Source: an uncultured Spirochaetota bacterium (GTDB lineage Bacteria > Spirochaetota > B62-G9 > DRHN01). From it: a stretch of DNA of 64,000 bases. The DNA lies in the NCBI GenBank assembly GCA_964433545.1, contig CAYSRJ010000014.1, forward strand, positions 10,611-74,610. Direction: 5' to 3'. Positions 1 to 23,126 of this stretch are shown piece by piece. A program made the translations under genes and the position numbers. Under the pieces are notes generated by a model that was not told where the DNA came from, searched no databases, and saw only the letters and a list, made by a program, of their open reading frames with translations. Every line of letters starts with the position of its first letter. The stretch's first letter is position 1.

Positions 1-1
1 C

Positions 2-2082: not shown

Positions 2083-2174
2083 TTATACACCTTTGATTGT
2101 TACAGTATCATTCTCTTCCTATTTCGAAGAGACCCTTTACATCATGTATCGTGTCCCGAAGTATTGTATCCCCG

Positions 2175-3485: not shown

Positions 3486-4414
3486 CAGGGTGTATTCACG
3501 AATGATCTTTCCTGTTGCTGGGTTTATGGTCTTCTTGGGTCACAACTCATAGTATAGTCTTTGATGAAATAAACTTGGCTTAAGTTACTCTTTCGATCGA
3601 AACGCCTTTTTGATGACACACTTTTAAGCTTTTTACAGGGGCATTTCTTTACAATGAAATCTCAGAATCATTGCACTTTTAATAAGTAATTCGATATCAT
3701 TTTAATTGCATGGATATTACCAGTCAATGAGAAACAACCCCGTATAGATCTTTTTCACAATCACACATGACCGCTTCCAGCCACCGCACTTCTCCCGGAA
3801 AGTTGGTGGCTTGAAAATGTTTTTCTTGCAGCAGCCAGGTTTCCTACCTATAATGTACCGTAGAATAGAGCAGTAATTTGTGACAACTGTGATGAATCTT
3901 TCATTTCAGAAAATGTATCTCGGGAAGTCATGAAATTGGCAGAAAAAGGAGTAATAAGTAGAGGTATTGAGATTGAAATACTCAACTTTGCGGCATAATT
4001 TAATGAAACTTGAAAATAATCGACTTCTCAGGTTGTAATTTACTGGATTTTTTGCCTAAAGAGGTGCGTGTTTCAGGGTATTCATTTTCCCAAGCTGCCT
4101 CCTGAGAACCCACGACGTTGGAATCTCCCTTGGTACTGTTTCAAGAAATCGTGCGCAATCAGGGATACCCAATAACTCGTTCAAGATAACGAGGAAGCCT
4201 GCGTGATCCATGAGGTGCGAAGATTTGATATCCAGGGCAAGAGATATCTGGAATTGTGTGGAAAACACTACATGAATGATCTATGTCTCCGGCATGGATT
4301 TGCAGGATTTACTGATAGGGATACTTCCGGTATTCTTGAGATTGTGGTATATTTCGAATTACTTGCGCGCAGATTTAAGATTAGTATTGGAAGTCTTTAA
4401 AATAAAGAGGTCGA

Positions 4415-4912
4415 TTGATTATGGGTATCATTGAAATATGCGGCTATGTTCCCGGAGCAATAGGTCGGGTGACAGCGCTGCATGCGCTCTACTACCATAA
4501 AAACTGGGGTTTCGGACTGTATTTTGAAGCAAAAGTCGCCAGAGAAGTCGGGGAGTTCTTGAGCCGTTTCGACGAAACGGCCGACGGCTTCTGGACAGTT
4601 TGCTCCAAAAATGTAGTTGAAGGCTCGATTTCGATTGACGCTATCAATGCTGCAGATGAAGGAGCACACCTCAGGTGGTTTATTCTGTCTCCAGAGCTAC
4701 AAGGTCGTGGGTACGGCAATAGACTTATGGAAAGAGCGGTCTCTTTTTGCCGGATGAATGGGTATAGATCAGTCTACCTCTGGACATTCACGGGACTTGA
4801 TGCCGCAAAACATATCTATGATAAGTTCGGTTTCAGAATTGTGAAGCAGGAAAAAGGAACGCAGTGGGGAAAGGAAGTCCTCGAACAGAAGTATGTATTA
4901 CGACTGTCCTGA
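4415..4912 (+). CDS. GNAT family N-acetyltransferase
   Basis: 165 aa. Acetyl-CoA-binding motif LQGRGYGNRLM and a C-terminal FGF..V segment typical of GNAT. Confidence 0.7.
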   Translation: MIMGIIEICGYVPGAIGRVTALHALYYHKNWGFGLYFEAKVAREVGEFLSRFDETADGFWTVCSKNVVEGSISIDAINAADEGAHLRWFILSPELQGRGYGNRLMERAVSFCRMNGYRSVYLWTFTGLDAAKHIYDKFGFRIVKQEKGTQWGKEVLEQKYVLRLS

Positions 4913-5089
4913 TTTATCCTGTCTATCGTACAAGTCCGGTTTTACGGCATTATGTGATATCTGGTATCACAGGCGATCACAGAAAAAACGCGGGAAATTG
5001 GGATTCGTGGATCATTTGTGGATGGGTTGTCCGAGGAACGTCCATGTTCGGCCCAAAACATGGAAGGTCAAGACGCGGTCGGCTCCCCA

Positions 5090-5770
5090 CTATTGAAATA
5101 GAGACGGTACAAAAGCAATGCTTTGTATAATATGAGTGTGTTGTTCCTTTGATAGTTGTTCGGCAGTATGGGCGCCCGACAGCACGGCTATATTCCAGCG
5201 CACTCCTGCCTTCCAGCCGGCCTGCAGGTCGAGCGCAGTATCTCCGATGTTCGCAACCTGTCGTATATCGATGATCTCCGCTAGCTCCATTGCCCGAAAT
5301 ATCATAAATGGAGCAGGGCGGCCGCGGGACACGTCCTCTCCGCAAACGACTGCATCAAATACATCATTTTTCCAGCCTGAACTATTAAGAATAATTTCCA
5401 CGATGGATCGATCGAATCCCGTATTAAGCGCCGCTTTTATACCGTGTTCGCGAAGCCATTTGAATGTTTGTGCAGCTCCGGGAACAGCACGCACACCCTG
5501 TTTTAGATAAGTGCCCGCCAATCGGTTATTAAAATCCTTGTAAATCGTTTCCATTAAATGAATGGTATCTTTCCGCCTGTCTGGATAAGAGACGGAGATC
5601 AGACTGTGGATTGCTTCTCTCTTTGAAGCTCCTCGGAATTTGCGTATATCTTCATTGGAGACATTAATTCCACATGCGTTCAGCGCGGCAATAAATGCGG
5701 CAGGAACCTGCCCGTTGTCTACTATCGTCGTCCCGGCCAAATCAAAGATGATTAACCGAATATCGTCCAT
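5090..5770 (-). CDS. PhnX-like HAD hydrolase (phosphonoacetaldehyde hydrolase family, short form)
   Basis: FDLAGTTIVD nucleophile motif. Segments DVSRGRPAPFMIFRAMELA and IGDTALDLQAGWKAG resemble PhnX DVPAGRPYPWMCYKNAMELG and VGDTVSDMKEGRNAG. Confidence 0.55.
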   Translation of the reverse strand: MDDIRLIIFDLAGTTIVDNGQVPAAFIAALNACGINVSNEDIRKFRGASKREAIHSLISVSYPDRRKDTIHLMETIYKDFNNRLAGTYLKQGVRAVPGAAQTFKWLREHGIKAALNTGFDRSIVEIILNSSGWKNDVFDAVVCGEDVSRGRPAPFMIFRAMELAEIIDIRQVANIGDTALDLQAGWKAGVRWNIAVLSGAHTAEQLSKEQHTHIIQSIAFVPSLFQ

Positions 5771-5936
5771 GAATACTCAGGGTCTCTTGTAGGATGCCAT
5801 TTTTATATAGTGTTGCGATGGTGGTCTCCTCCTGGAAAACGGAGGAGCTTCAATTATTTTAACCACCTGGATGAAATAGTATCGTATTTCTTCCATTTCC
5901 ACAAATTAAAAGTGGTGTATGCTCTCCTTGGGAAAG

Positions 5937-5964
5937 TCCCTGGCGGGATGTATCCCTGGCGGGA
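5937..5964. promoter_or_regulatory. tandem direct repeat TCCCTGGCGGGA-TGTA-TCCCTGGCGGGA in the divergent phnX-like/deoR intergenic region; candidate regulator-binding site
   Basis: Exact 12-mer duplicated with a 4-nt spacer, seen directly in the sequence. Confidence 0.3.
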
Positions 5965-5977
5965 CTGAATATTAAAA

Positions 5978-6002
5978 AGTAACTTTTATGAAGTTACTTA
6001 GA
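5978..6002. repeat. REP/MITE-like palindromic element copy (AGTAACTT-ttatg-AAGTTACT-TAGA)
   Basis: 8-bp perfect inverted repeat with a 5-nt loop. Same core as the copies at 7058, 39297, 53647, 53706 and 58047. Confidence 0.6.
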
Positions 6003-6178
6003 TGTATATAGGTTTTTAATCAACAATATTAGGTGATGGAGGGGGCGGAGCCATATTGGAAACAAAACTGGCGCAGGATAAGTAATGATGAGAGGGTGGT
6101 GATGAAGTTCAGGCAGTGTTTTTTTGTCTTTATCAATGGAGATTGGATTAAAGATTCAGAAATATTCAAAATAATTAC

Positions 6179-6206
6179 TTGACATTCAGAATATTTTTAA
6201 TATGAT
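6179..6206 (+). promoter_or_regulatory. sigma70-like promoter (TTGACA-16-TATGAT) upstream of the DeoR regulator gene
   Basis: Consensus -35 and near-consensus -10 with 16-nt spacing, about 40 nt upstream of the ATG at 6247. Confidence 0.35.
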
Positions 6207-6246
6207 TCAATAATATACATTATAAATTCTTCCTTTGGAAAAGTTA

Positions 6247-7062
6247 ATGCCTTCAGGTCTTATTCCTGCTGATAGGCAAAAGCGGATTTACGATCTCCTC
6301 CGCGAACAGGGTGTTGTCAAAGTCAATGAAATTAGTAAACTATTAGGTGTATCCGAGTTAACTATCAGAAGGGATCTCGATGTATTGGAAAAAAAGGAAA
6401 TCCTCGAGAGAACACACGGCGGGGCGATTTACAATCAGAGAATGCCGGTAGAGCCTCTCTATGAGCAGAAGCATAGGCTGCACAAAGAGGAAAAAAAAGC
6501 AATTGGACGGTATGCAGCAGAACTTATAGAAGACGGTGATACTATTCTGATTAATAGTGGTTCTACAACGCTGGAAGTAATCAACAATCTTCGAAATAAA
6601 AGCGTGAGAATCATTACAAGTAATCTTGGTGCTATATATAAATCCGTAGAAAGTAAATTTGAGCTTATAATGCTTGGAGGTTTATTTCGTTCACAATCAA
6701 ACTCCCTCGTTGGTGAGTTTGCTCAGATTTTGCTTAAACGTGTATACGGTGCAAAGACAATTATAGGCGTTGATGGTTTCAGCATAAAGTATGGACTGAC
6801 TACTCCTGTACTTGAAGAAGCGGGCATTGCCAATAAGATGATTGAATCTACGCTGGGGATGGTCATAGTCGTAGCTGATTATAGTAAATTAGGGGTTGTA
6901 TCAAACTTTGTTTCTGCACCAATAAATAAGGTGAATGTTCTGGTTACAGATGATAAGATAGATGACGAGTATCGAAATAGCCTCGAGGAGATAGGAATAC
7001 GGGTAGTGGTTGCATCCTTAAATGTGGCCAAAGCCACTTCGCGGCCGAGTATCAAACAGTAA
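6247..7062 (+). CDS. DeoR/GlpR family transcriptional regulator
   Basis: N-terminal HTH (RQKRIYDLLREQGVVKVNEISKLLGVSELTIRRDLDVLE) and C-terminal DeoR sugar-binding domain. The last 8 codons and the stop codon lie inside a repeat element. Confidence 0.8.
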   Translation: MPSGLIPADRQKRIYDLLREQGVVKVNEISKLLGVSELTIRRDLDVLEKKEILERTHGGAIYNQRMPVEPLYEQKHRLHKEEKKAIGRYAAELIEDGDTILINSGSTTLEVINNLRNKSVRIITSNLGAIYKSVESKFELIMLGGLFRSQSNSLVGEFAQILLKRVYGAKTIIGVDGFSIKYGLTTPVLEEAGIANKMIESTLGMVIVVADYSKLGVVSNFVSAPINKVNVLVTDDKIDDEYRNSLEEIGIRVVVASLNVAKATSRPSIKQ

Positions 7063-7086
7063 CTTCGCGAGAAGTTACTCAGAAGC
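7037..7086. repeat. REP/MITE-like element copy (CTTCGCGGCCGAGTATCAAAC + AGTAACTTC-gcga-GAAGTTACT + CAGAAG)
   Basis: 9-bp stem with a 4-nt loop. The left arm is near-identical to 53623-53646 and 37395-37410. The TAA inside AGTAACTT is the deoR stop codon. Confidence 0.65.
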
Positions 7087-7187
7087 CAAGGTTGCATCTC
7101 ATATATGATAACCAGAGTGGTCTTCTGCTGGAATTAATGCAGAATCTGAGTTAAAATATAAAAAAATTTAAGAGTGGGAGGTAAGCA

Positions 7188-8270
7188 ATGAAAAAGCTTT
7201 TAGTTGTTTTGCTCATCATTTTTTTTGGTGTCACAGCTAATTTGTTTGCGGCAGGTACTAAAGAAGTGGAGAATAAAGTCTTGAGACTCATTACCTGGTC
7301 AGGTTACGCACCACCGCAGCTTGTTGAAAAGTTTAAAGAAGAAACAGGCATAACGGTGGAAGTTACCCTCAGTAACAACGAAGAGATGATCTCGAAACTC
7401 AGAGCCACGAGGGGCGGGGGTTTTGACCTTGCCCAGCCATCACAGGACAGAATTTCTGCAGTGGTAGAGCAGTATAATATCTATCAGCCAATTGACTATT
7501 CAAAGGTCGATACTGATCAGATAGACCCGTCACTTCTGGAAGCTGTAAAGAAAAATACCCTTGTGAACGGGAAATCCTATGCAGTACCTCACGTGTACGG
7601 CACTTCAGGTCTTGTGATAAATAAAGCAAAAGCACCGGATGTGAAAGATTATAAAGACCTGCTTAATCCTAAATATACGGGAAGGGTCTCATACAGGATG
7701 AAAAGGCCTACCCTGCTTGCAATGGGATATTCTTTCGGGTACGATCCTTTTTCTCTCTATGACGATAAAGCTGCCTATCAGAAGTTTCTCGATGAGATAG
7801 CAGAGAAACTTATTGCCGGAAAACCGGTTGTAAGATTCTACTGGGATAACGGCGATCAGCTGCTTGAATCACTTCGATCAGGAGAAGTCTGGGCTGCAAT
7901 GGCCTGGGAGCAGGCAGGCTGGAAACTGCACGGGGAGAACCCTGATATAGATTATGTTGCACCGACGAGCGGTGCAATGGCATGGATTGATACATTTGCC
8001 ATTCCTGCAAAGTCTGAAAACATCGAAGGTGCATACAAATGGATCAATTTCAGCCTGAGGCCTGAGAATGCTGCGGTATTCACCAATAAGGAAAAATACG
8101 GCACAGCTTCAAAAGATGCTGTAAAATTCCTGGAACCCAGTACTGCTGACAACTTCAAGAGATGTCTTCCTCCCGAAGTGCTGGCGAAAGCCCACTGGTA
8201 TCCTCCCGTACCCCCGGGTTTGGAAGAAATGGAAGGAAAGGTACTGGACAGAATCAGGGCCTCGAAATAA
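7188..8270 (+). CDS. ABC transporter periplasmic substrate-binding protein, PotD/PotF/PhnS family
   Basis: Signal peptide MKKLLVVLLIIFFGVTANLFAAG. Polyamine/2-AEP-type SBP fold. Good RBS GGAGG. Confidence 0.75.
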   Translation: MKKLLVVLLIIFFGVTANLFAAGTKEVENKVLRLITWSGYAPPQLVEKFKEETGITVEVTLSNNEEMISKLRATRGGGFDLAQPSQDRISAVVEQYNIYQPIDYSKVDTDQIDPSLLEAVKKNTLVNGKSYAVPHVYGTSGLVINKAKAPDVKDYKDLLNPKYTGRVSYRMKRPTLLAMGYSFGYDPFSLYDDKAAYQKFLDEIAEKLIAGKPVVRFYWDNGDQLLESLRSGEVWAAMAWEQAGWKLHGENPDIDYVAPTSGAMAWIDTFAIPAKSENIEGAYKWINFSLRPENAAVFTNKEKYGTASKDAVKFLEPSTADNFKRCLPPEVLAKAHWYPPVPPGLEEMEGKVLDRIRASK

Positions 8271-8277
8271 AACATTC

Positions 8278-8318
8278 AAACCGGCAGTAGAGACACTACT
8301 GCCGGTTTTTTTACTGTA
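8278..8318 (+). terminator. intrinsic terminator/attenuator hairpin after the SBP gene
   Basis: AACCGGCAGTAG-agaca-CTACTGCCGGTT followed by TTTTTTT. Confidence 0.5.
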
Positions 8319-8339
8319 TACCCGGAAGGTGAAATCAAA

Positions 8340-9452
8340 ATGCAGATTGCATTATCTGTACAAAACGTAACGAAAAAATTCGGTGATTTTATAGCAGTTG
8401 ATAGTGTTTCCTTCGATGTGGAAGACGGAAAATTTTTTTCAATACTCGGGCCTTCAGGATCCGGTAAAACAACACTACTGAGAATGATAGCAGGGTTTTA
8501 TGAACCCTCAAGCGGGTCAATCAAGATACGCGAAAAAGATATGGCTGGGGTTGGTCCGAACAAGAGGCCGGTTAATCTTGTTTTTCAGAGTCTCGCCTTA
8601 TTTCCGATGATGAACGTTTTTGAGAATGTTTCGTTTGGATTGAAAAGGAGAGGTGAGAAGAGCGGGGATGTGAAAAAAAAGGTCGAATCTATGCTGGAAA
8701 GGGTCGGTCTCATCGACTTTGGAAACAGGAAGATAAATCAGCTCTCCGGCGGACAAAAACAGAGAGTTGCCATCGCACGATGTCTGGTGATGGATCCGAC
8801 GGTTCTGCTTTTAGATGAGCCGCTTGGTGCATTGGACTTTAAATTACGAGAAAATATGAAAGTTGAGCTTAAAAAACTGCAGGCAAAAGTAGGAACCACC
8901 TTTGTCTATATAACCCATGATCAATCGGAAGCAATGGTGATGAGCGATCATGTAGCTGTTCTGAATGCTGGCCGTTTTGAACAGATAGATACTCCGCAAA
9001 ACCTCTATAACAAACCGGCCTCCGCGTTTGTTGCACAGTTTGTCGGAGACAATAATAAGTTCCATGTCAAACTCGGTACGGACAGGCACGGTGTTTTTTA
9101 CGCAACGACAGATGAAGGACAATCGTTTAAACTGGACAAATCGTATGATTTAACGAGAGACAATTCATTCGAAATGTATGTGAGACCCGAGGCAATAATA
9201 ATCAATCCCAAGGAAGACAAGGACAGTGTTAATCTATTGAATGTAGAAGTGAAGTCTATACTATTTGACGGTGGCAACAGTAGAATCCTCATTGTGCCGG
9301 AGGGTTCCAACAAAGAGATTATTGTTTCCCTCCCGCAGAACAGGAAATATGATACGCTCAAAGTCAAAGATAGATTGAAAATTGGCTGGTATCCTTCTGC
9401 AGTCGTATGTTTCAAGGGGACAGGTAAGAGGATATATGAAGAAATCTCATAA
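8340..9452 (+). CDS. ABC transporter ATP-binding protein, PotA/PhnT-like with C-terminal TOBE domain
   Basis: Walker A GPSGSGKTT, signature LSGGQKQRVAIARC, Walker B LLLDEP. The 370 aa length is consistent with an added C-terminal regulatory domain. Confidence 0.85.
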   Translation: MQIALSVQNVTKKFGDFIAVDSVSFDVEDGKFFSILGPSGSGKTTLLRMIAGFYEPSSGSIKIREKDMAGVGPNKRPVNLVFQSLALFPMMNVFENVSFGLKRRGEKSGDVKKKVESMLERVGLIDFGNRKINQLSGGQKQRVAIARCLVMDPTVLLLDEPLGALDFKLRENMKVELKKLQAKVGTTFVYITHDQSEAMVMSDHVAVLNAGRFEQIDTPQNLYNKPASAFVAQFVGDNNKFHVKLGTDRHGVFYATTDEGQSFKLDKSYDLTRDNSFEMYVRPEAIIINPKEDKDSVNLLNVEVKSILFDGGNSRILIVPEGSNKEIIVSLPQNRKYDTLKVKDRLKIGWYPSAVVCFKGTGKRIYEEIS

Positions 9453-10305
9453 GTTCGGAATTCGGTGGGGTTTTATAATCTTTTTTACACCGGTTTTTCT
9501 CTGGTTATTTATGTTGATCATTTTACCGCATCTTGAGCTTCTCAGAATGTCGTTCATAGGTACCGATTATTACGGGAAATCCGGGTTCACCCTTGAGAAT
9601 TATGGAGGGTTTTTTAAAGAGCCTGTTTACTGGCTTACATATGTAAGAACAACGTTATATTCTATTCTGGTTACATTTATCGTTTTAATTATAGCGCTTC
9701 CGGTTTCCTTCTATGTAACAAAAATTGTAAAAGTGAAATTCCAGGGATTTTTAATGGTTCTCCTGCTGGTCCCATTTTGGGTCAGCGAGCTCATCAGAAT
9801 TTATGGCTGGATAATAATTTTACGCGAAAGTGGAGTGTTGAATTATTTCCTTACCAGAGCGCATATACTAAAACAGCCTTTAGAGATGCTCTATCATGAT
9901 GCGACCATGATTCTTGGGCTGGTGTATACCACCATGTTGTTTATGATCGTTCCAATCATCGGAGTTATGGAGAGCCTCGACGATTCTATCATTGAGGCAG
10001 CCCTTGATCTCGGAGCCAGCAAATTAACAATATGGCGTAAAATTATCATACCGTATTGCATGCCCGGAATTATGTCGGGAAGCATCATTGTTTTCATGCT
10101 GGTTCTTGGCAGTTATCTGACACCGAAGCTGATGGGGGGGAAGAATGCGTTGTGGTTCACGGAGCAGATTTACAACCAGATTATTATTTACTTTAACTGG
10201 AATCAGGGGTCGGCATTCGGTTTCCTGCTCCTGTTTATTTCTTCACTGATAATACTTGCTGCGTTGAAGATTACAGGGCAGAAATTTTCACAGGTAATAA
10301 GATGA
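9436..10305 (+). CDS. ABC transporter permease, PotB/PhnU-like
   Basis: Six-TM permease with an EAA-like loop (EAALDLGASKLTIWRKIIIP). Start chosen at the ATG preceded by AAGAGGA. Confidence 0.8.
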   Translation: MKKSHKFGIRWGFIIFFTPVFLWLFMLIILPHLELLRMSFIGTDYYGKSGFTLENYGGFFKEPVYWLTYVRTTLYSILVTFIVLIIALPVSFYVTKIVKVKFQGFLMVLLLVPFWVSELIRIYGWIIILRESGVLNYFLTRAHILKQPLEMLYHDATMILGLVYTTMLFMIVPIIGVMESLDDSIIEAALDLGASKLTIWRKIIIPYCMPGIMSGSIIVFMLVLGSYLTPKLMGGKNALWFTEQIYNQIIIYFNWNQGSAFGFLLLFISSLIILAALKITGQKFSQVIR

Positions 10306-11159
10306 TACGTACTTTGCCGAACACAAAAGTATATTTAACAGGCTTCAGGATTTTCATAATACTTTATTTTATATTTCTATTTTCACCTCTTTTAGTAACC
10401 ATGGTTCTTGCATTCAATGACTCAATGTTTCCTTCTTTGCCATGGAAAGGCTTTACACTCTCGTGGTTTTTAGGCAAAGGTCCGGACAAAATCGGTATTT
10501 TTCATGATGCGATCAATTTGCGGAGTATTTTTAATTCCTTCAGGGTTGCAATTGCCGTTACCATTCTTTCTACAATTGTCGGGACAATGGCAGCATTTCT
10601 CTTTGAGCAGGAAGATTTCAAGTTTAAGAATATTCTCTATTTCCTCATGCTCGCTCCCATGGTTATACCGGGAGTTATTTTAGGTATATCCCTATTAATG
10701 TTTTCCACTGCTGTGGGTTTGTTTTTTGAAAATGCATTTGGTTGGAATATTAAGATGTTGAGTCCGGGTATATGGCTTGTAGTGATGGGCCAGTTTTCAT
10801 TTATTACCACCATTGTAGCATTGTTTGTTTCTGCACGGTTGAGGAAATTTGACAGAACGCTCGAAGAAGCTGCGTACAACCTTGGGGCAACCAGATTAGA
10901 AGTAATATGGTTTATTACATTGAAGTATCTACGTCCCTCAATTATTGGCGGAGCTGCAGTTGCATTCCTGATGTCCTTTGAGAACTTCAACACAACATTA
11001 TTCCTTGTTGGTTCTGACGCCACCCTGCCCATAAATCTTTACCTGCAAGTACGAGACGGATCAACCCCTGTTATAAATGCGATTGCATTACTGCTCATTA
11101 TTACCACTTCCACCTTAGCAGTTACCAATCTTTATCTGGGTAGAAAGAACCATGAGTGA
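10302..11159 (+). CDS. ABC transporter permease, PotC/PhnV-like
   Basis: EAA-like motif EEAAYNLGATRLEVIWFITL. ATGA overlap with the upstream permease gene. Confidence 0.8.
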   Translation: MIRTLPNTKVYLTGFRIFIILYFIFLFSPLLVTMVLAFNDSMFPSLPWKGFTLSWFLGKGPDKIGIFHDAINLRSIFNSFRVAIAVTILSTIVGTMAAFLFEQEDFKFKNILYFLMLAPMVIPGVILGISLLMFSTAVGLFFENAFGWNIKMLSPGIWLVVMGQFSFITTIVALFVSARLRKFDRTLEEAAYNLGATRLEVIWFITLKYLRPSIIGGAAVAFLMSFENFNTTLFLVGSDATLPINLYLQVRDGSTPVINAIALLLIITTSTLAVTNLYLGRKNHE

Positions 11160-11327
11160 GTGATACGCTCAGTACTATTCAACACAGACTCAAAGAGGTT
11201 TTTTATTTTTTTGAGCACGACTTGCTTTTCGGTTTACATGGTGGTGTGGAGTGGTTTGCATTTTGGGTATCCGGGTGGTTGGTATTATATTCAGATGAAC
11301 CGGGAATTCAAGGGGATAATAATAGAG

Positions 11328-12821
11328 ATGAAAAACCGGTATATCCTCGCCATCGACCAGGGAACAACCGGCACAAAGGCGGTTATATACGATCAAAACG
11401 GCATGCAGGTTGCAGGTGCATACGAAGAGCTTCACCAGTACTACCCGAAACCGGGCTGGGTTGAACACGACCCGATGGAGATCTGGGAGACCGTTGAAAA
11501 TACGATTCATGTCGTTCTGAAAATGATTCCTGTGGAGTCTCTTACAGCGATCGGCATCACCAATCAGCGGGAAACGACAATACTCTGGGACAGGGTAACC
11601 GGGGAGCCTGTTCATAACGCCATCGTGTGGCAGTGCAGAAGGACCTCGGATCGATGCAGTACACTCAAAGGGGTTAAAGAGAAGAGCCGACTTGTCTCAC
11701 TTCGTACGGGCCTTCCGATCGACGCTTATTTTTCAGCGACAAAACTGGAGTGGCTTTTGCAGAATGTTCCCGATGCCCTCCGGGATGCGAAAGATGGAAG
11801 GCTCGCCTTTGGAACACCCGATTCGTGGGTGCTCTGGAAACTGACCGGCGGTGCGGTTCATGCCACGGACTTTACCAATGCCTCTCGCACCATGCTGTTC
11901 AATATCGAAACGCGTACATGGGATGAGGACCTTCTGAAGATGTTCGGCATTCCAATGAAGGTCCTCCCGGATGTCAAAAGATCTTCCGGGGTTTTCGGGA
12001 AGAGCGCCGAAACGGATGTTCTTCCTGCCGGTATTCCAATATCAGGAATGGCTGGCGATCAACAGGCGGCTCTTTTTGGGCAGGCCTGCTTTGATGCGGG
12101 ATCGATAAAAAACACATACGGTACCGGCTGTTTCGTTCTTATGAATACCGGAGTGGTACGCCCCGTTTCAAAATACGGGCTTGCCACAACCCTGGCCTGT
12201 AACGGGAGCGGCAAACCGGTATTTGCGCTAGAGGGTTCTATATTTGTCGCGGGTGCTGCAGTACAGTGGCTTCGTGACGGGTTAAAAATTCTTGGCAGTG
12301 CATCAGAATCAGAACCGATGGCCCGGTCAGTTGAAGATACTGCGGGAATATATTTCGTACCTGCTTTCGTCGGGCTCGGTGCTCCATACTGGGACCCTGA
12401 TGCCCGGGGGAGCATATTCGGGATAACCCGTGGAACGACTCAAAATCATATTGTGCGTGCCGCCCTCGAGGCGATGTGTTACCAGACGAGAGATGTTCTC
12501 GAATCGATGTTGAAAGATACAGGCCTGCATGTTCAGGCTTTAAGGGTTGACGGCGGCGCTGCAGAAAACGATTTTCTCTGCCAGTTTCAGGCGGATATTC
12601 TCGGTATCGATGTAATTAGACCGAGGTGTATAGAGAGTACGTCGTTGGGGGTAGCCTTTCTTGCCGGGCTTGCGATCGGATACTGGGAAGATGCAGACGC
12701 ACTGAAGAGGTGTAGTGTAGTCAACACGCGGTTCTCACCGAGTATTTCACAGGCGGATGCCGACATACTGTACGCCGGTTGGCGGGATGCGGTCGAAAGA
12801 ACACGTTCAAAGATGGGATGA
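11328..12821 (+). CDS. glpK: glycerol kinase
   Basis: MKNRYILAIDQGTTGTKAVIYD and the FGGY-family motifs throughout. ATG at 11328 preceded by AAGGGGA. The ORF-track start at 11160 is an upstream extension. Confidence 0.9.
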   Translation: MKNRYILAIDQGTTGTKAVIYDQNGMQVAGAYEELHQYYPKPGWVEHDPMEIWETVENTIHVVLKMIPVESLTAIGITNQRETTILWDRVTGEPVHNAIVWQCRRTSDRCSTLKGVKEKSRLVSLRTGLPIDAYFSATKLEWLLQNVPDALRDAKDGRLAFGTPDSWVLWKLTGGAVHATDFTNASRTMLFNIETRTWDEDLLKMFGIPMKVLPDVKRSSGVFGKSAETDVLPAGIPISGMAGDQQAALFGQACFDAGSIKNTYGTGCFVLMNTGVVRPVSKYGLATTLACNGSGKPVFALEGSIFVAGAAVQWLRDGLKILGSASESEPMARSVEDTAGIYFVPAFVGLGAPYWDPDARGSIFGITRGTTQNHIVRAALEAMCYQTRDVLESMLKDTGLHVQALRVDGGAAENDFLCQFQADILGIDVIRPRCIESTSLGVAFLAGLAIGYWEDADALKRCSVVNTRFSPSISQADADILYAGWRDAVERTRSKMG

Positions 12822-12956
12822 TGAAGTTTACAGAATCAAATGGCATCTGTGTGACTCAATTCGTGTTTTAGATGTCTTTTTTATCTGCGTGCATGCTGAC
12901 TCACTAGTATATTTTATAGATGTGATGTCAATACAGAGTTGATACACGAAGTCGAT

Positions 12957-12972
12957 TGAATCATGTGATTCA
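12957..12972. promoter_or_regulatory. palindrome TGAATCA-TG-TGATTCA about 50 nt upstream of the class V aminotransferase gene; candidate operator
   Basis: 7-bp perfect inverted arms with a 2-nt spacer, seen in the sequence. Confidence 0.25.
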
Positions 12973-13022
12973 GCCACCGATGCTGGATTTACAGACGACC
13001 TAATTTCATCAAAGAGGAAACT

Positions 13023-14138
13023 ATGAAAAATCTACTGGATAACATCGATGAAGTACTGCTTATGGGTCCGGGGCCTTCCTGCGTTCCGGATGAGGTGTAC
13101 AGGGCTCTCTCATGTAAGACGCTCGGGCATATGGACTACTATTTTATCCGGATCATGGATGAAATCAAAGACCTGCTTCAAAAACTGATGGAGACTCAAA
13201 ACAGCCTGACCCTTGCGGTTTCAGGAACAGGTTCTGCGGGCATGGAGACCTGCTTTGTGAACCTGATAGAGCGGGGGGACAGGGTCCTCATTCTGATAAA
13301 CGGTGTATTCGGCAAGAGGATGGCGGATGTTGCGGACAGGCTCGGGGCACAGGTTGATACGCTCGAGTTCGAGTGGGGAACACCGGTTGTTCCCGATCAG
13401 GTGGCTAAAAAGTTGTCAGGTAAATCATACAAAATTGTGGCGGTCGTTCATGCGGAAACTTCGACAGGGGTAAGAAATCCGGTGGAAGAGATCAGCCGGC
13501 TGGTGAAGGACAGCGAAGCTTTTTATCTGGTGGATTGTGTTACCAGCCTTGGAGGTATACCGGTTGAGGCCGACCGCTGGGGGGTGGATGCTTTGTACAG
13601 CGGTACACAGAAATGCCTGTCCTGCCCTCCGGGCCTTTCGCCCGCGACCTTCTCAAAACGCACTGTTGAATTGATAAAAAACAGGAAGAGCAAGGTTCCC
13701 AACTGGTACCTCGACATGAGCATGATCATTCAGTACTGGGAGGGCAAAAAGCGGGCATATCACCACACCGCACCGATCAATATGCTGTACGGTCTGTACC
13801 AGGCCCTTCTGCTGATCTTTGATGAGGGAATTGACCGGGTGCATCAACGGCACCTTGATGCACACCAGCGGCTCGTAGAAGGGCTGGAGGAACTTGGCAT
13901 GGAAATGCTCGTTCAGCCGGAATACCGTCTGCCCATGCTGAATGCAGTGAAGGTACCTGAAGGGGTTGATGAAGCCAAGGCAAGAAACCAGTTTCGAAAA
14001 GAGCATTTTATCGAGATAGGCGGGGGGCTTGGGCCGCTTGCGGGGAAGATATGGAGAATCGGCCTGATGGGCCACACTGCACGGGAGGAAAACGTCGAAA
14101 GATTGCTTTCTGCTCTGAAAAAAATTCTGAAGCGCTGA
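13023..14138 (+). CDS. class V PLP aminotransferase (alanine-glyoxylate/serine-pyruvate aminotransferase family; could be a 2-aminoethylphosphonate-pyruvate transaminase PhnW-like)
   Basis: LLMGPGPSCVPDEV N-terminus, SGTQKCL PLP-lysine region, 371 aa. Confidence 0.75.
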   Translation: MKNLLDNIDEVLLMGPGPSCVPDEVYRALSCKTLGHMDYYFIRIMDEIKDLLQKLMETQNSLTLAVSGTGSAGMETCFVNLIERGDRVLILINGVFGKRMADVADRLGAQVDTLEFEWGTPVVPDQVAKKLSGKSYKIVAVVHAETSTGVRNPVEEISRLVKDSEAFYLVDCVTSLGGIPVEADRWGVDALYSGTQKCLSCPPGLSPATFSKRTVELIKNRKSKVPNWYLDMSMIIQYWEGKKRAYHHTAPINMLYGLYQALLLIFDEGIDRVHQRHLDAHQRLVEGLEELGMEMLVQPEYRLPMLNAVKVPEGVDEAKARNQFRKEHFIEIGGGLGPLAGKIWRIGLMGHTAREENVERLLSALKKILKR

Positions 14139-14314
14139 ACTGTATCGTCTTGATATAGATAGAAGCAGGTGTAGGGAATATAATTGAATAGCATGGGTCG
14201 GTTGTTCTTATTGTACGTTGAGGTGAAGCTACGCTTTTAAGTAGAGGAAAAAAGCCCTGTGCCCGGTAACAAAACTATTTCTCTGGTGCCCGTACAGTGT
14301 ATTAGCGCCCTTTA

Positions 14315-15586
14315 TTGATTTTGAAGTCTCAGGAAGAGGTACGGCAACTGCAGATTAAATACGTAAGCAATAGATGGCAGATCGTAAAGTCCTTCTACAC
14401 CGGTATCGGAAAATCGGCGGTACTGCTGCCGGCCGCCTTCCTCGTCGCCGCTGGTGTCGGTACTGTGGCCCTGGGTATGATTTTTTACGTGCGCGATGTC
14501 TTTGCAGCAACCCCGTCCCAGGTTGGATATCTTACCGCCCTGTGGTCCCTGAGCTATATCATGGGATGCCTCTTCATCCGCCAGGCATTCAACAGGGTTC
14601 TTCCACGCTTTCTTTTAATCGCTTCCACCTTTTTAATGAGTATGTTTGTGTTGGCTTCGGTTTTGTCACACAGGTTTTTCATGGTATACGTTTTTTACAG
14701 CCTGTGGGGCATTGCGATGTCACTTTTCTGGCCCTTTATTATGGGATGGCTGTCATACGGCATTGAAGGTGCGAAACTTGGCAGGGTATTATCCAACTAC
14801 AACTTTTCCTGGAGTATAGGCACAATAATCAGCCCCTTTCTCGCAGGTATTTTGAGCACGTTCTCCTCGCCACTGCCGCTTTTTTTTGGGAGTTCTCTAT
14901 TTTTCCTTACCTGCGTCTTTATCATCGGAGCCACCCTTACCCTGCCGAAGATCAAAGCTGATCGCTGGATCGAGGCCGCAAAAAAGAGTAACACATCCTT
15001 AAAGGACAGCAGTACACCGCTGAGATTCCCATCCCGGATTGGTTTATTCACGACCTATACGGTGGTTGGCGTGATTCTCAATATCTTTCCGGTTTACGCC
15101 CAGGCCGATCTCGGTGTGAGCAAGAGCCTCGTGGGTCTCATCCTCCAGCAGAGGGCAATCTTCGCGACCGTAGGGTTTATCGTTCTTGGACGAACCTCGT
15201 TCTGGCACTTTAAACCCTCGCAGATGATCGTCGGGCAGATTCTGCTTTCGGCAATGGTTTTCTTGCTTCAATATACGAGTATGCCTTTTCCCCTGGGCAT
15301 ACTGCTTGCCCTTATCGGTATCCTCATGTCGTTGAGCTATTTCAACAGCCTCTTCCACGGTGTATCGGGAAGCATCAACAGGGCGGGGAGGATGGCGATT
15401 CACGAGTCGATACTATCGGCGGGGCTCATAGTCGGGTCTTCAGTCGGCGGAATCCTGTATGAAAAATATGCCATGTCAACTGTATACCAGTTTTGCGCCG
15501 CTCTCGTGTTGATTGGGACAGTCCTGCAAACAGGCCTTGTTTTTAAAATACACGGAAAAGATGCTGTCATGAAAAACAGAAGGTAA
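14315..15586 (+). CDS. MFS transporter
   Basis: About 12 predicted TM helices. TTG start required to include TM1. Substrate unknown. Confidence 0.55.
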   Translation: MILKSQEEVRQLQIKYVSNRWQIVKSFYTGIGKSAVLLPAAFLVAAGVGTVALGMIFYVRDVFAATPSQVGYLTALWSLSYIMGCLFIRQAFNRVLPRFLLIASTFLMSMFVLASVLSHRFFMVYVFYSLWGIAMSLFWPFIMGWLSYGIEGAKLGRVLSNYNFSWSIGTIISPFLAGILSTFSSPLPLFFGSSLFFLTCVFIIGATLTLPKIKADRWIEAAKKSNTSLKDSSTPLRFPSRIGLFTTYTVVGVILNIFPVYAQADLGVSKSLVGLILQQRAIFATVGFIVLGRTSFWHFKPSQMIVGQILLSAMVFLLQYTSMPFPLGILLALIGILMSLSYFNSLFHGVSGSINRAGRMAIHESILSAGLIVGSSVGGILYEKYAMSTVYQFCAALVLIGTVLQTGLVFKIHGKDAVMKNRR

Positions 15587-15909
15587 AGCTCATCTCCGCA
15601 GTATACTGTTGGTGAGCGGCTTCTCTTAGCAACCGCTGATTTGCAAAAAGCGCCCTTATACGAAAAATTTTACAGTGCATCGGGGATTTTTCTAGCAATC
15701 AAGTTTTTTAAAAAAACCTTGACAGGTTTTTCACGGCATGATATCGTTTGCACAATCGTTTTCATACGGAAAACTTCCAACATAGTATAAAAGAGTCTAT
15801 TAATGTGCCATCTGTATTAAAAAATGTATTCACAAAAAAAACATGTAGGTATGTGGCTGTAAGTGGAAGTATTGGAATTGTTTTAATTTGATGGGTAGGA
15901 TTAAATGGT

Positions 15910-16914
15910 ATGCCTTCTATGAAGGATGTTGCCTCTATGGCGGGGGTTTCGACCTCTACAGTATCGAGAGTCATTAATCAAACCATTCCTGTCGACAAAC
16001 AGACTCGATCAAAAGTGCTTGATGCAATTGAAAGTTTAAATTACAGACCAAATCTTCTTGCCAAAGGCCTCAGAGTTAAAAGCGGACAATTAATAGGTTT
16101 GATTTTGCCCGAGATACGAATGCACGCTTTTGTCCAGATCATCAACAGTGTTGAGGAATATGTCGTAAACAGGGGATTCAGCCTCATTATAGGGAATACC
16201 CATAACGATCCTGATATTGAGGAGAAGTTACTCGATAACCTGCTTCGAAGAAATGTCGATGGAATCATTTTTTCACGGTTATCAGATGAAAGCAGAGTTC
16301 TGAATCTCATCAAAAAAAGCAGAGTAAAGGTTGTCGCAATAGATAGAGAGCTTGATGTAAAGGACGTGCCGCACGTAATTCTTGATAACTACGGGGCAGG
16401 GGTAACGGCTGCGCGCCACCTTATCTCGCTCGGTCATAAGAAAATGGCGTGTATCACCGGGCCCCTGAATATTAAACTGTGCAGAGAACGCCTGGCCGGT
16501 TTTTCCGATACAATTAAAGATGAACATTTACAACTTGAAGATAATCAGATCTATGAGGGAAGATTTGACTTTGATTCCGGGTTCAAAGGAGCGGAGCATC
16601 TTCTTTCGCAACACAGCGATATAAGCGCTTTGTGGGCACAAAATGACCTTATGGCAATCGGAGCGTTAAAGGCATTGAAAATACATTCACACCTCGTCCC
16701 TGAGGAGATAGCTCTCATGGGGATGGATAATCTTGAGATCTCACGTATGGTCTCACCGGCTTTAACAACAATCATGCAGCCCTTTGACGAAATGAGCAAG
16801 AAAGCAGTTGAAATTCTTTTCAGTAAAGAAAATAAAGCAGGACAACAGCGAATAATTCTTAAACCCGGGCTTGTTGTGCGGGATTCCACCGTTTTAAATA
16901 GTAGCAAAACATAG
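15910..16914 (+). CDS. LacI family transcriptional regulator
   Basis: N-terminal HTH MKDVASMAGVSTSTVSRVIN and periplasmic-binding-protein-like effector domain. Confidence 0.8.
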   Translation: MPSMKDVASMAGVSTSTVSRVINQTIPVDKQTRSKVLDAIESLNYRPNLLAKGLRVKSGQLIGLILPEIRMHAFVQIINSVEEYVVNRGFSLIIGNTHNDPDIEEKLLDNLLRRNVDGIIFSRLSDESRVLNLIKKSRVKVVAIDRELDVKDVPHVILDNYGAGVTAARHLISLGHKKMACITGPLNIKLCRERLAGFSDTIKDEHLQLEDNQIYEGRFDFDSGFKGAEHLLSQHSDISALWAQNDLMAIGALKALKIHSHLVPEEIALMGMDNLEISRMVSPALTTIMQPFDEMSKKAVEILFSKENKAGQQRIILKPGLVVRDSTVLNSSKT

Positions 16915-16965
16915 TAAAATCAGGCAAGGTTTTAGTAATTTCTTGGATAGAGGAGAAACAATAAG

Positions 16966-18468
16966 TTGTCTGAAGAACCATACATTCTAGAGATGAACAA
17001 TATTTCAAAAGAGTTTCCCGGTGTAAAGGCTCTTGAGGATGTCAGTTTGCGACTCAGAAAGGGAGAAGCCTTCGCACTGGTTGGTGAAAACGGCGCGGGT
17101 AAATCCACGCTTATCAAAATCCTTTCAGGAGTATACAGCAACGATACTGGCGAGGTAATAATAAATGGTCAAATGGTAAACATAAAGGGACCGAAAAATG
17201 CAATTGACCTCGGAATCAACACCATTTATCAGGAAACATCCCTGGTACAGGATATTACAGTTGCGGAAAATATATTTCTTGGAAGACAGCCGCAAACCAG
17301 ATGGGGACGGATTAACTGGAAGGAAATGATTGAGTCTTCCGAGAAAATACTTCGGAATCTTTCTATCCCCCTTTCACCTTTATCGATTGTTGCTGAATTA
17401 TCGGCTGCACAGCAACAGCTTATCGAAATAGCGAAGGCATTTTCCCGTGAAGCGAAAATCATCATCATGGACGAGCCGACCGCATCTATTACCGAGGAGG
17501 ATACGGAAAACCTATTCAACCTTATTCGTCGTATTGTCAAAACGGGGACGTCGATAATCTATATTTCACACAGAATACAGGAGATTTTCGTAATAGCGGA
17601 TATGGTCAAGGTGCTTCGTGACGGTAAGACAGTTAAAACGATGAAGATAAGTGAAACAAACGAAAACGAAATAGTCAAATACATGGTGGGACGCGATATA
17701 GGCAATATCTTCGGCGATAAAAGTTATCAATCAAAAGAAAACATCGTCCTTCAGGTACAAAATCTCACCACATCCGGCGTGTTTGAAAATATCAGTTTTG
17801 ATTTAAAGGAAGGCGAAATTCTCGGCTTTTCCGGTCTCGTTGGGGCCGGCCGCAGTGAAATCGTTCGCGCGATTTTCGGACTTGATGAAATAGAAATCGG
17901 AGAAATATATCTATACGGAAAGAAAATAACTTCCCGAAAACCGGACGATGTTATCAAAATGGGTGTTGCCTTTGTGTCGGAGGACAGAAGGCTGGAAAGT
18001 ATAATTCAGGGTTTCAGTGTAAAGGCAAATATTACTATCCTATTATTAAAAGAAGTGCTTTCGAAACTCAGGCTCATTAAAAGAAAAAAAGAAAATGACC
18101 TCGCTGCGCGCTACGTACGTGAATTCGATATTAAAACACCATCACTGGAACAGCTTGTAATGAATCTAAGCGGGGGTAACCAGCAGAAGGTGGCTCTCGC
18201 AAAGTGCCTTTCAACCAAACCGAAAATTCTCATACTTGATGAACCGACAAAAGGAATCGACGTTGGCGCAAAAAAAGAAATTCATACCCTTATAAAAGAA
18301 CTCGCAAACAGGGGAGTTTCGATTATCCTCGTTTCTTCTGAATTGCCGGAAATCATCGGTATGTGTCACCGCGTTGTCGTAATACACGAGGGAAGGTTGA
18401 TGAAGATATTTGAAAAAGAGGAAATAAACGAAGAAAATCTAATGTATGCAGCGGTCGGGAATATGTGA
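16966..18468 (+). CDS. sugar ABC transporter ATP-binding protein with duplicated ABC domains (RbsA/MglA/XylG-like, CUT2)
   Basis: Aligns along its full length to E. coli RbsA (FPGVKAL, GENGAGKST, second domain LSGGNQQKVALAK). TTG start 10 nt after GAGGAG. Confidence 0.85.
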   Translation: MSEEPYILEMNNISKEFPGVKALEDVSLRLRKGEAFALVGENGAGKSTLIKILSGVYSNDTGEVIINGQMVNIKGPKNAIDLGINTIYQETSLVQDITVAENIFLGRQPQTRWGRINWKEMIESSEKILRNLSIPLSPLSIVAELSAAQQQLIEIAKAFSREAKIIIMDEPTASITEEDTENLFNLIRRIVKTGTSIIYISHRIQEIFVIADMVKVLRDGKTVKTMKISETNENEIVKYMVGRDIGNIFGDKSYQSKENIVLQVQNLTTSGVFENISFDLKEGEILGFSGLVGAGRSEIVRAIFGLDEIEIGEIYLYGKKITSRKPDDVIKMGVAFVSEDRRLESIIQGFSVKANITILLLKEVLSKLRLIKRKKENDLAARYVREFDIKTPSLEQLVMNLSGGNQQKVALAKCLSTKPKILILDEPTKGIDVGAKKEIHTLIKELANRGVSIILVSSELPEIIGMCHRVVVIHEGRLMKIFEKEEINEENLMYAAVGNM

Positions 18469-18484
18469 CAGAGGGTTATACTGA

Positions 18485-19462
18485 ATGAATGTTCAGAAAC
18501 AGCATACTTCTTTTAAGTTTCGACGAAGTCTCGCACGTTTTTTCTTTAACCAGGCAATGCTCATTGTTCTGCTTGTATTTATTATCGGGATGAGTCTTGT
18601 TGCAAAAGATTTTCTAACGGTAGGAAACATTTTTAATATAATTCGACAGATCACCGTACACGGCATTGTGGCGTGCGGCATGACGATCGTTGTAATCGGA
18701 AAAGGTATGGATCTTTCTGCCGCTTCGATTCTTGCCCTGTGCGCAGTCGTCAATGTGATGCTTCAGCCATTCGGTTATCTCGTTGCTATTGTTGCAGCAG
18801 TTGCTGTCGGTTTTATCGCAGGGTTCATCAACGGATATCTCATCGGAAAGGTGAAAGCAAATTTTATAATAGTAACACTGGGAACGTCGATCTTCTATAA
18901 AGGTGTCGCTCTCATTATTTCCGGTGGAAGGAATTTGAAGAGCAGGCCGGAAAGAATATTCCATTTCATCGGTGATGAAAGCCTGTTTGGCATACCGGTA
19001 CTTGCATATTTTCTTGTTGTGACTATGGTTTTTGTGGGAATTCTTCTGCATAAAACAATTTCCGGCAGATGGTTGTATGCTGTCGGTCTGAACGATAGAG
19101 CTGCCCGGGTTGCCGGTATCAATGTTTCGAATGTTGTCATGTGGAGTTATATCATCAACGGATTAATTATTTCGCTGGGCTCTATTGTTCTCACCTCTCG
19201 TTTGCCCAGAATCAGGGTGGGTACCGCTTCAACGTACCTGTTTGATGTAATCACAATTGTCGTTCTCGGTGGGACAGCCCTGTCCGGCGGTGTTGGCGGT
19301 ATTTATAAAACGGCGATCGGACTTTTTATTTTCGCCATTATCAATAACGGTATGGCTCTTCTGTCTATTCCTTTCGAATACCAGCAGTTAATAAAAGGAG
19401 TAATTCTTATTCTTGCTGTGCTGTATGATGAATTCAATAGAAGAAAGAGGTTGATGTATTAA
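18485..19462 (+). CDS. sugar ABC transporter permease (RbsC/AraH family)
   Basis: Polytopic membrane protein with CUT2 permease signature regions. Confidence 0.8.
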   Translation: MNVQKQHTSFKFRRSLARFFFNQAMLIVLLVFIIGMSLVAKDFLTVGNIFNIIRQITVHGIVACGMTIVVIGKGMDLSAASILALCAVVNVMLQPFGYLVAIVAAVAVGFIAGFINGYLIGKVKANFIIVTLGTSIFYKGVALIISGGRNLKSRPERIFHFIGDESLFGIPVLAYFLVVTMVFVGILLHKTISGRWLYAVGLNDRAARVAGINVSNVVMWSYIINGLIISLGSIVLTSRLPRIRVGTASTYLFDVITIVVLGGTALSGGVGGIYKTAIGLFIFAIINNGMALLSIPFEYQQLIKGVILILAVLYDEFNRRKRLMY

Positions 19463-19465
19463 AAA

Positions 19466-23067: not shown

Positions 23068-23126
23068 CTGATCATAAGAGGCTGTTTGACATCAGTATTT
23101 AAATCCAATTATACGGGAGGCGTGTA

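Follow-up and report, generated by a model that had tools for sequence, protein, structure and literature searches.

A probable DeoR/GlpR-linked glp-type operon around a PotD-family ABC importer in an uncultured Spirochaetota bacterium: glycerophosphoethanolamine as a candidate substrate

The described systems closest to the locus analysed here are the PhnSTUV-PhnR-PhnWX systems of Salmonella and Bacillus for 2-aminoethylphosphonate (2-AEP), the polyamine importers PotABCD and PotFGHI of Escherichia coli, and the UgpBAEC-UgpQ system for glycerophosphodiesters. The gene for the substrate-binding protein (SBP) comes first in potFGHI too, and members of the "phosphonatase-like" family TIGR03351 are PhnX-like partners of PhnW or of PbfD/TIGR03364 oxidases. 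The locus occupies positions 5090-15586 of a 64,000-nucleotide stretch of DNA (the window; contig CAYSRJ010000014.1) from an uncultured Spirochaetota bacterium, and contains a four-gene ATP-binding cassette (ABC) transporter, hereafter the cassette, together with a DeoR/GlpR-family regulator, glycerol kinase, a class V aminotransferase, and a PhnX-like hydrolase of the haloacid dehalogenase superfamily (HAD). The original prediction, made from the sequence alone, took these genes for a complete 2-AEP pathway of PhnSTUV, PhnW, and PhnX, while allowing for a glycerol-linked substrate or a mosaic operon. We arrive at a DeoR/GlpR-controlled glp-type operon around an uncharacterised PotD-family importer, whose likeliest substrate, with a probability of about one half, is an amine-bearing glycerophosphodiester, glycerophosphoethanolamine being the leading candidate. 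The nine genes are all real, and the observation itself is confirmed; every gene has a strong Pfam or NCBIfam match, hence none is a chance open reading frame (ORF).

The gene neighborhoods of the cassette in other genomes bear on the substrate. A scan of the genome collection yielded 80 loci with SBP orthologs 55-98% identical to that of the window; the neighboring genes were clustered, the clusters named by Pfam, and all 80 loci rescanned with hidden Markov models (HMMs). The loci span Spirochaetota, Atribacterota, Synergistota, Cloacimonadota, Campylobacterota, and Alpha- and Gammaproteobacteria, and the four-gene cassette is conserved throughout. The commonest neighbors are phosphodiesterases of three unrelated families (GDPD, DHH, or metallophosphoesterase), seen beside the cassette in 31 of the 80 loci, and GDPD glycerophosphodiesterase by itself accounts for 23. 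Genes of the gamma-glutamyl ethanolamine pathway (glutamine synthetase (GS)-like, Peptidase_C26, or choline/ethanolamine kinase) are found in 17 loci; 12 carry a gene for a dehydrogenase (GlpA-like or GlpD) or for the antiterminator GlpP, and 37 have at least one of the phosphodiesterase, ethanolamine, and glycerol-3-phosphate gene groups. The GDPD representative has no signal peptide, which suggests that a diester reaches the cytoplasm.

The ethanolamine-related neighbors form a recognizable set, since a GS-like enzyme, an alcohol dehydrogenase, an aldehyde oxidoreductase, and a gamma-glutamyl amidohydrolase together constitute the ethanolamine gamma-glutamylation pathway (PMC10132767, section 9). 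At 38% identity, the proteins encoded in spirochaetes resemble their counterparts in Marinovum algicola pMaD4, where genes for a tripartite ATP-independent periplasmic (TRAP) transporter, GS, aldehyde dehydrogenase (ALDH), and alcohol dehydrogenase are directly followed by the cassette, with a Ugp-like transporter adjoining. The most plausible of the rival readings, although itself unlikely, is uptake by the cassette of unesterified ethanolamine or of phosphoethanolamine (or choline/phosphocholine) and not of a glycerol diester. The adjoining gamma-glutamylation and choline/ethanolamine kinase genes would suit it, as would a pocket with a single amine site (see below); however, the prevalence of phosphodiesterases and the missing signal peptide of GDPD favor a diester, and the linkage to GlpP, GlpD, GlpA, and DeoR points to glycerol-3-phosphate as a product. 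Moreover, besides the cassette, the Marinovum operon already includes a TRAP transporter, located where the published operon of Phaeobacter has the ethanolamine TRAP system EtoXVW, and, for plain ethanolamine, the invariant basic patch of the pocket argues against.

Next in plausibility, and likewise doubtful, is a general importer of glycerol-3-phosphate or glycerophosphodiesters, an analogue of Ugp that would recognize the glycerol-phosphate end with no specificity for the amine. It would be consistent with the linkage to GDPD, GlpD/GlpA, GlpP, and DeoR and with two Sulfitobacter plasmids in which the cassette comes directly after ugpBAEC, beside a Na/Pi cotransporter. This tandem with a complete Ugp system, though, suggests a different, complementary specificity; the linkage to the ethanolamine pathway is recurrent, and the aromatic box and Asp268 of the SBP, amine-binding hallmarks of PotD/PotF, are invariant. 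In Phaeobacter MED193, a "PotD/PotA" pair located three genes from GlpR is induced by phosphate stress in a PhoB-dependent manner (PMC10132767, tables 1-2); this pair, which counts in favor of the general importer, may be the same system as the cassette.

In six to eight spirochaete loci (L003, L004, L007, L014, L026, L035, and L058), the cassette is immediately flanked by the gene for a ~320-aa kinase of the GHMP family. In most cases the kinase has a ~415-aa DHH-family phosphoesterase as a partner, and sometimes a Cof-type HAD and a PfkB kinase are present as well. The ethanolamine model leaves this association unexplained.

The SBP itself is nearest to PotD/PotF by sequence and by fold. On NCBIfam models it scores 119.3 bits with PotD (cutoff 582) and 109.7 bits with PotF (cutoff 636), below both equivalog cutoffs, and has no UgpB match. 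Among the PhnS models NF011620, TIGR03227, and TIGR03261, a match is seen only with the last (PhnS2; 25.8 bits, cutoff 392.75), and BLASTP finds no similarity to PhnS of Tsukamurella (E = 0.097). The top PDB sequence matches, as well as the top Foldseek matches of the AlphaFold2 model (pLDDT 87.7), are PotD/PotF proteins, with TM-scores of 0.70-0.77 and identities of 25-27%; the model shows the type II fold of periplasmic binding proteins, including an aromatic box. The fold search reveals no ligand-specific relative beyond PotD/PotF, and Salmonella STM0429, which we take to be PhnS, ranks 46th in it with 14% identity. The assignment of the SBP to PhnS is thus not sustained. Nor does gene order help, although PhnSTUV had been deduced from it: an order with the SBP first is shared with potFGHI, and one orthologous cassette (L060) has the SBP gene last. 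The ATPase does not discriminate between transporter types, as it scores 345.6 bits with TIGR01187 (cutoff 355.6), 339.6 with PhnT2 (457.7), and 337 with PotA (482).

To characterize the pocket, the spermidine-binding residues of PotD were mapped onto the SBP via a phmmer alignment and checked in 69 SBP orthologs. The aromatic box (W37, Y40, W240, W266, and Y304) is kept, and, of the four acidic residues of PotD that bind polyamine nitrogens, the SBP retains the equivalent of D257 (D268) only. The other three, E36, D168, and E171, correspond to G39, K172, and T175, respectively, which are 90-96% conserved. A basic patch is formed by R88, R170, and R173 (96-99%) and by K172 (90%). Together, the aromatic box, D268, and the basic patch suggest a ligand with one ammonium and one anionic group; judged by these residues, the pocket predicts a phospho-amine.

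The same observations make true polyamine import, by a spermidine/putrescine transporter of PotABCD/PotFGHI type that lies by chance inside a glycerol operon, the last of the rival readings in plausibility and a very improbable one. The best named HMMs and the top PDB and fold matches are indeed PotD/PotF, and the source names of the homologs say spermidine/putrescine; yet the SBP is far under the equivalog cutoffs, and only one of the four acidic residues with which PotD binds amines survives, Lys or Thr occupying two of the other three positions, inside the invariant basic patch. The conserved neighbors, too, have to do with phosphodiesters, glycerol-3-phosphate, and ethanolamine and not with polyamines.

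For an amine-bearing glycerophosphodiester we propose the following route. The SBP would hold the ethanolamine end of the ligand in the retained aromatic box with Asp268, and the phosphate with the patch of Arg88, Arg170, Lys172, and Arg173 that replaces the acidic residues of PotD. The ABC complex would import the intact diester, and a cytoplasmic phosphodiesterase, encoded beside the cassette in many other genomes and not in the 64-kb window, would then yield glycerol-3-phosphate and ethanolamine. GlpK would feed free glycerol into the same glycerol-3-phosphate pool, and this pool is probably the signal sensed by the DeoR repressor.

GlpK passes the equivalog cutoffs of NF000756 (734.4 bits, cutoff 498) and TIGR01311 (690.8 bits, cutoff 590) and carries the FGGY N- and C-terminal domains PF00370 and PF02782. 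The regulator has the HTH_DeoR plus DeoRC architecture of GlpR; its best NCBIfam matches, AgaR (184.8 bits, cutoff 260) and haloarchaeal GlpR (179 bits, cutoff 300), are below cutoff. The deoR gene is conserved in two related loci only (L001 and L002), GlpP occupies the corresponding place in L089, and the regulator beside the Marinovum cassette is not a DeoR homolog.

The aminotransferase is of the alanine-glyoxylate/serine-pyruvate (AGXT) type by sequence comparison, not PhnW. It scores 169.4 bits with TIGR02326 (cutoff 400.8), 213.5 with TIGR03301 (360.8), and 165.4 with NF010006 (296), whereas bona fide PhnW of Fulvitalea, to which it is 27% identical, reaches 588, 508, and 570 bits, respectively. 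Among proteins of known structure, it is closest to alanine-glyoxylate aminotransferase of Nostoc (1vjo, 366.7 bits, E = 1e-108), followed by animal AGXT/SPT (255-291 bits), with PhnW at 107-120 bits. Homologs ~70% identical to it are found across Aminicenantes, Spirochaetota, Deltaproteobacteria, and Promethearchaeota and, where named, are called alanine-glyoxylate aminotransferase. The PhnW-like identity proposed for it has therefore been abandoned. A class V aminotransferase of any kind is seen in three of the 80 cassette loci, and a PhnW-type enzyme in none; the AGXT-type aminotransferase adjoins the same cassette in L002, L060, and L087. The protein thus appears as a recurrent yet dispensable accessory of the cassette, with a putative role in amine, glycine, or serine metabolism.

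An AGXT-type aminotransferase repeatedly precedes a ~450-aa FAD-dependent oxidoreductase of family PF12831 (L060 5629-8108, L087 6001-8483, L088 6001-8601, and, after permease genes, L061). The pair, or the PF12831 oxidoreductase alone, adjoins the same ABC cassette in several genomes.

The HAD hydrolase passes the TIGR03351 model only marginally (220.8 bits, cutoff 218.9), while its relative with 76% identity in L089 is below the cutoff (208 bits), and TIGR03351 members from true 2-AEP clusters score 229-261 bits. The true PhnX model, TIGR01422, gives 127.1 bits against an equivalog cutoff of 220, and the best PDB match is PhnX of Bacillus cereus (65 bits). The alignment with the latter retains D10 (D12 in B. 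cereus), A12 (A14), K50 (K53), and R151 (R160), that is, the DxAGT motif (D10-L-A12-G-T), the cap Lys, and the motif-III arginine of GRP. On the other hand, Met49, His56, Cys22, and Tyr128, cap and active-site residues of B. cereus PhnX, are replaced by R46, A53, G20, and F119, respectively. Hence, of the PhnX-like character ascribed to this protein, the TIGR03351 assignment, the catalytic motifs, and the cap Lys stand, and membership in PhnX proper does not. As the protein keeps its nucleophilic Asp, the Ala two residues further on, the Schiff-base Lys, and the Arg of motif III, it is plausibly a Schiff-base-assisted hydrolase; phosphonoacetaldehyde is a possible substrate, and not one that is indicated.

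The cap motif R46-G-A-S-K50-R51-E defines a subclade: in 120 HAD homologs, A48 and E52 are conserved in at least 80% and the other positions in at least 97%. TIGR03351 members from real 2-AEP clusters carry M-G-x-x-K in the cap, as PhnX does; examples of such clusters are the Fulvitalea cluster, with phnW and a phosphonatase-like TIGR03351 member, and the Tsukamurella cluster, with a PhnS-type ABC transporter, a TIGR03364 oxidase, and a phosphonatase-like TIGR03351 member. In six contexts of the RGASKRE subclade (L081, L083, L084, L089, L090, and L091), no genes for PhnW, a Pbf/TIGR03364 oxidase, or a phosphonate transporter are observed, and, among the contexts read, the sole conserved neighborhood of the subclade is the glp locus of the window, present in three related genomes. 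Comparison of the window with L081 shows no conserved link of HAD either to the transporter of the major facilitator superfamily (MFS), as the MFS proteins are unrelated, or to molybdenum hydroxylase, whose Mo subunits are 26-31% identical in local segments only. The HAD gene is probably a separately transcribed neighbor lying outside the operon.

The PA2803/PcrP "inactive phosphonatase" subfamily was considered for this protein and rejected: its members are without the nucleophile, the cap Lys, and a portion of the cap, and the protein of the window has every one of these. The RGASKRE-type HAD has a YNCE-like beta-propeller protein as a repeated neighbor in the Acidobacteria-type contigs L083, L084, and L091, joined in the first two by a ~900-aa BNR/Sortilin-repeat protein; these neighbors may hint at what the subclade really does. 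Upstream of the HAD gene in the window (35-3485) lie the C-terminal part of a molybdenum subunit of the xanthine dehydrogenase family, which is cut short by the beginning of the window, a haloacid dehalogenase of type II (TIGR01428, 215 bits, cutoff 125), and a succinate-semialdehyde-dehydrogenase-like ALDH that is below its cutoffs.

In the 2-AEP reading, third in plausibility among the rivals, the ABC transporter would import 2-AEP, the aminotransferase would produce phosphonoacetaldehyde, HAD would cleave the C-P bond, and glpK and deoR would be interlopers. The TIGR03351 pass, the retained DxAGT, cap Lys, and motif-III Arg, and the occurrence of TIGR03351 members in the genuine clusters of Fulvitalea and Tsukamurella are compatible with it; so is an SBP pocket with one amine site and a basic patch, and the best NCBIfam match of the aminotransferase by E-value is in fact PhnW-AepZ. 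All this is outweighed by the AGXT type of the aminotransferase, the dissimilarity of the SBP to real PhnS, the 80 cassette loci, where PhnW is missing and a PhnX-like protein occurs once, in a sister genome, and the subclade features of HAD, which has Arg for Met49, no His56, and six contexts devoid of phosphonate genes. In addition, HAD is absent beside the L002 operon and is separated from the L001 operon by a 1.6-kb insertion. The reading is largely refuted, and we regard it as highly improbable; an AGXT-type aminotransferase and an SBP of the PotD type, both of which were found, are also the two outcomes that the original prediction had itself named as contrary to it.

A further reading, likewise very improbable, is that the locus serves deacylated head groups of phosphonolipids (glycero-2-aminoethylphosphonate) by a non-canonical route. 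This glycerol-linked aminophosphonate would enter through the PotD-type system and be split at its only P-O ester into glycerol and 2-AEP, and the AGXT-type aminotransferase and the RGASKRE-type HAD would run the phosphonatase pathway with non-PhnW, non-PhnX enzymes. The free glycerol released would explain why the operon has a glycerol kinase and not glycerol-3-phosphate enzymes alone; no conserved neighborhood among those analysed supports this reading, and the window has no gene for the esterase that it needs.

Close relatives of the locus differ mainly at its periphery. In L002, with a cassette ~90% identical at the DNA level, a GlpA-like glycerol-3-phosphate dehydrogenase trio lies directly upstream of deoR, no HAD gene adjoins the operon, and glpK has a 208-bp deletion. 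L001 keeps HAD, with the 1.6-kb segment, containing a 503-aa ORF, between it and deoR, and its aminotransferase is broken by a 330-bp internal deletion. In L089, the order is HAD, the 503-aa ORF, and GlpP; L087 contains subunits of the glycerol-3-phosphate dehydrogenase trio, a glpK fragment, the cassette, the aminotransferase, and the PF12831 oxidoreductase. The gene content of these four loci suggests that HAD is a lineage-specific neighbor of the glp locus. The deletions in L001 and L002 could be either real decay or assembly errors of metagenome-assembled genomes.

The 503-aa ORF (L001 5053-6564 and L089 765-2276), found between HAD and the glp regulator, has a Cys-rich N-terminus and no Pfam match, and tblastn detects no remnant of it in the window. 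When L001 13671-14484 and L002 10414-11819, from the two closest relatives, are compared with 11197-14160 of the window, the broken accessory genes are different ones, and the transporter genes are intact.

Several observations weigh against import of an amine-bearing glycerophosphodiester. The chief one is that genes for a phosphodiesterase, the ethanolamine pathway, and glycerol-3-phosphate dehydrogenase were not found in the window by tblastn and HMM searches, which leaves the pathway incomplete. In addition, the neighbors are uninformative in about half of the cassette loci, and glycerol-3-phosphate freed from a diester needs no GlpK. The pocket features would suit 2-AEP, phosphoethanolamine, or other zwitterions as well. 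The decay of glpK and the aminotransferase gene in close relatives suggests that the operon is partly mosaic. Finally, literature searches retrieved no paper characterising the cassette or the HAD subclade, and no measured ligand is known for any member of the transporter family. Both reservations of the original prediction nevertheless find support, the mosaic operon in part, and the glycerol-linked substrate, e.g., glycerophosphoethanolamine, as the option favored by comparative genomics, to which DeoR and glpK also point.

The layout of the locus is given in Table 1. The ORF coordinates agree with the described order of SBP, ATPase, and two permease genes and with deoR and glpK in the same direction: all genes from deoR through the MFS gene are on the plus strand, HAD alone being on the opposite one. 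The genes said to flank the transporter do so in part: HAD is located on one side, although on the other strand, while on the other side glpK separates the aminotransferase gene from the transporter genes. The MFS gene, the last in the plus direction before a LacI-controlled sugar operon, has no family in the NCBIfam scan and is seen beside the cassette solely in L001 and L002 among the 80 loci; its part in the operon is putative.

Table 1. Coordinates of genes and other features of the locus in the window.
Feature	Position	Strand	Remarks
HAD hydrolase, PhnX-like	5090-5770	-	226 aa; divergent subclade of TIGR03351
Intergenic region between divergent HAD and deoR	5771-6234		464 bp; holds a promoter-like site and one palindrome copy
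DeoR/GlpR-family repressor	6235-7062	+	Pfam PF08220 and PF00455
Periplasmic SBP, PotD/PotF fold, own subfamily	7188-8270	+	NCBIfam, PDB, and fold matches
Hairpin, 13-bp stem, then T-run, immediately 3' of SBP gene	8278-8308	+	Pattern match only
ABC ATPase with TOBE domain, PotA/PotG/PhnT-like	8340-9452	+	Pfam ABC_tran and TOBE_2
ABC permease 1, PotB/PotH-like	9436-10305	+	ORF open from 9382
ABC permease 2, PotI/PotC-like	10302-11159	+	ORF and family matches
Glycerol kinase GlpK	11328-12821	+	NF000756, TIGR01311; ORF open from 11160
Class V aminotransferase, AGXT family	13023-14138	+	PF00266; 1vjo best structure match
MFS transporter	14315-15586	+	Pfam MFS_1; absent from the original prediction

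A sigma-70-like promoter match ahead of deoR (6179-6206, TTGACA-16-TATGAT) is a match to the consensus only, and the hairpin after the SBP gene, as a pattern match, is likely an attenuating terminator within the operon; overall, the sites from the promoter and terminator scans are not above the shuffled expectation. An Rfam scan of positions 1-17000 of the window gives no match.

A palindrome, AGTAACTT-N5-6-AAGTTACT, is present in six copies in the window (5978-5998, 7058-7079, 39297-39318, 53647-53667, 53706-53727, and 58047-58067), with zero expected from 100 shuffles, and L001 has copies at 7539 and 7615. Four of the window copies lie clearly between genes, the one at 7058 overlaps the DeoR ORF at its 3' end, and the one at 39297 lies where the ORF at 39270 begins. 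Conserved flanks of the type CGCGGCCGAGTATCAAAC...AGAAGC are common to several copies, and the repeat looks like a hairpin element resembling repetitive extragenic palindromes (REP) or miniature inverted-repeat transposable elements (MITE).

Elsewhere in the window, the LacI-regulated sugar ABC operon (15910-24329, plus strand) encodes an ATPase, two permeases, and an RbsB/YtfQ-like SBP; its ABC genes are followed by those for a 497-aa protein weakly similar to sulfoquinovose and L-fucose isomerases and a 400-aa protein with no NCBIfam match. An 1100-aa ORF at 27971-31273 (plus strand) is an apparent fusion of a serine hydroxymethyltransferase domain (residues ~89-465) and a glycine-cleavage T-protein/aminomethyltransferase domain (residues ~700-1066).

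Databases name this transporter family "spermidine/putrescine", and it is found in marine Alphaproteobacteria and in many anaerobes among Spirochaetota, Atribacterota, and Synergistota. If glycerophosphoethanolamine-type import is true, these bacteria would have a second, Ugp-independent route by which membrane phospholipids are recycled to supply carbon, nitrogen, and phosphorus, and a large block of polyamine-transport annotations would be wrong. A marginal TIGR03351 match with an adjoining class V aminotransferase is insufficient evidence for a phosphonatase pathway, and metagenome surveys should not list this locus among those able to degrade phosphonates.

Compared with the Phn systems of Salmonella and Bacillus, the locus has in common an SBP-first ABC importer that consists of four components and belongs to the same broad superfamily, a class V aminotransferase, and HAD with DxAGT and the cap lysine. 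It differs in an SBP unrelated to PhnS by BLASTP, an AGXT-type aminotransferase, and HAD that fails the PhnX model and has neither Met49 nor His56; the genes are non-contiguous, HAD being divergent and glpK interposed, and their combination is not conserved elsewhere. With TIGR03351 proteins, HAD shares DxAGT, the invariant cap Lys, NTGF, GRPxP, and GDT..D, while its subclade has the invariant RGASKRE in place of M-G-x-x-K and occurs in contexts with no phosphonate genes. In terms of family membership, the HAD motifs and the marginal TIGR03351 match are all that connects the locus with the Phn phosphonatase systems.

The ethanolamine gamma-glutamylation operon with EtoXVW, known from Phaeobacter MED193, Chromohalobacter, and Agrobacterium, has the same four enzyme types that accompany the cassette in ~12 genomes, and Marinovum has the cassette attached to an operon of this kind. 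However, these enzymes are not encoded in the window, and the cassette is an ABC and not a TRAP transporter, with a basic patch that plain ethanolamine would not need. With PotABCD/PotFGHI of E. coli, the locus shares the fold (TM-scores of 0.71-0.77), the aromatic box, the Asp257/Asp278 equivalent, the permease and ATPase types, and the potFGHI gene order; it differs in an SBP identity of 25-27%, the loss of E36, D168, and E171 to the basic patch, and the other neighbors. UgpBAEC-UgpQ resembles it in the proposed logic, that is, import of an intact glycerophosphodiester, cytoplasmic cleavage by GDPD, and control of the glp/pho type, although the cassette is of the PotD and not the UgpB/CUT1 type; its position beside complete ugpBAEC on two plasmids argues that it is not a replacement copy of Ugp. 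The locus would therefore function like Ugp/UgpQ with no membership in that family, while structurally it belongs to the PotD/PotF family, departing from the acidic-residue pattern and the HMM cutoffs of the latter.

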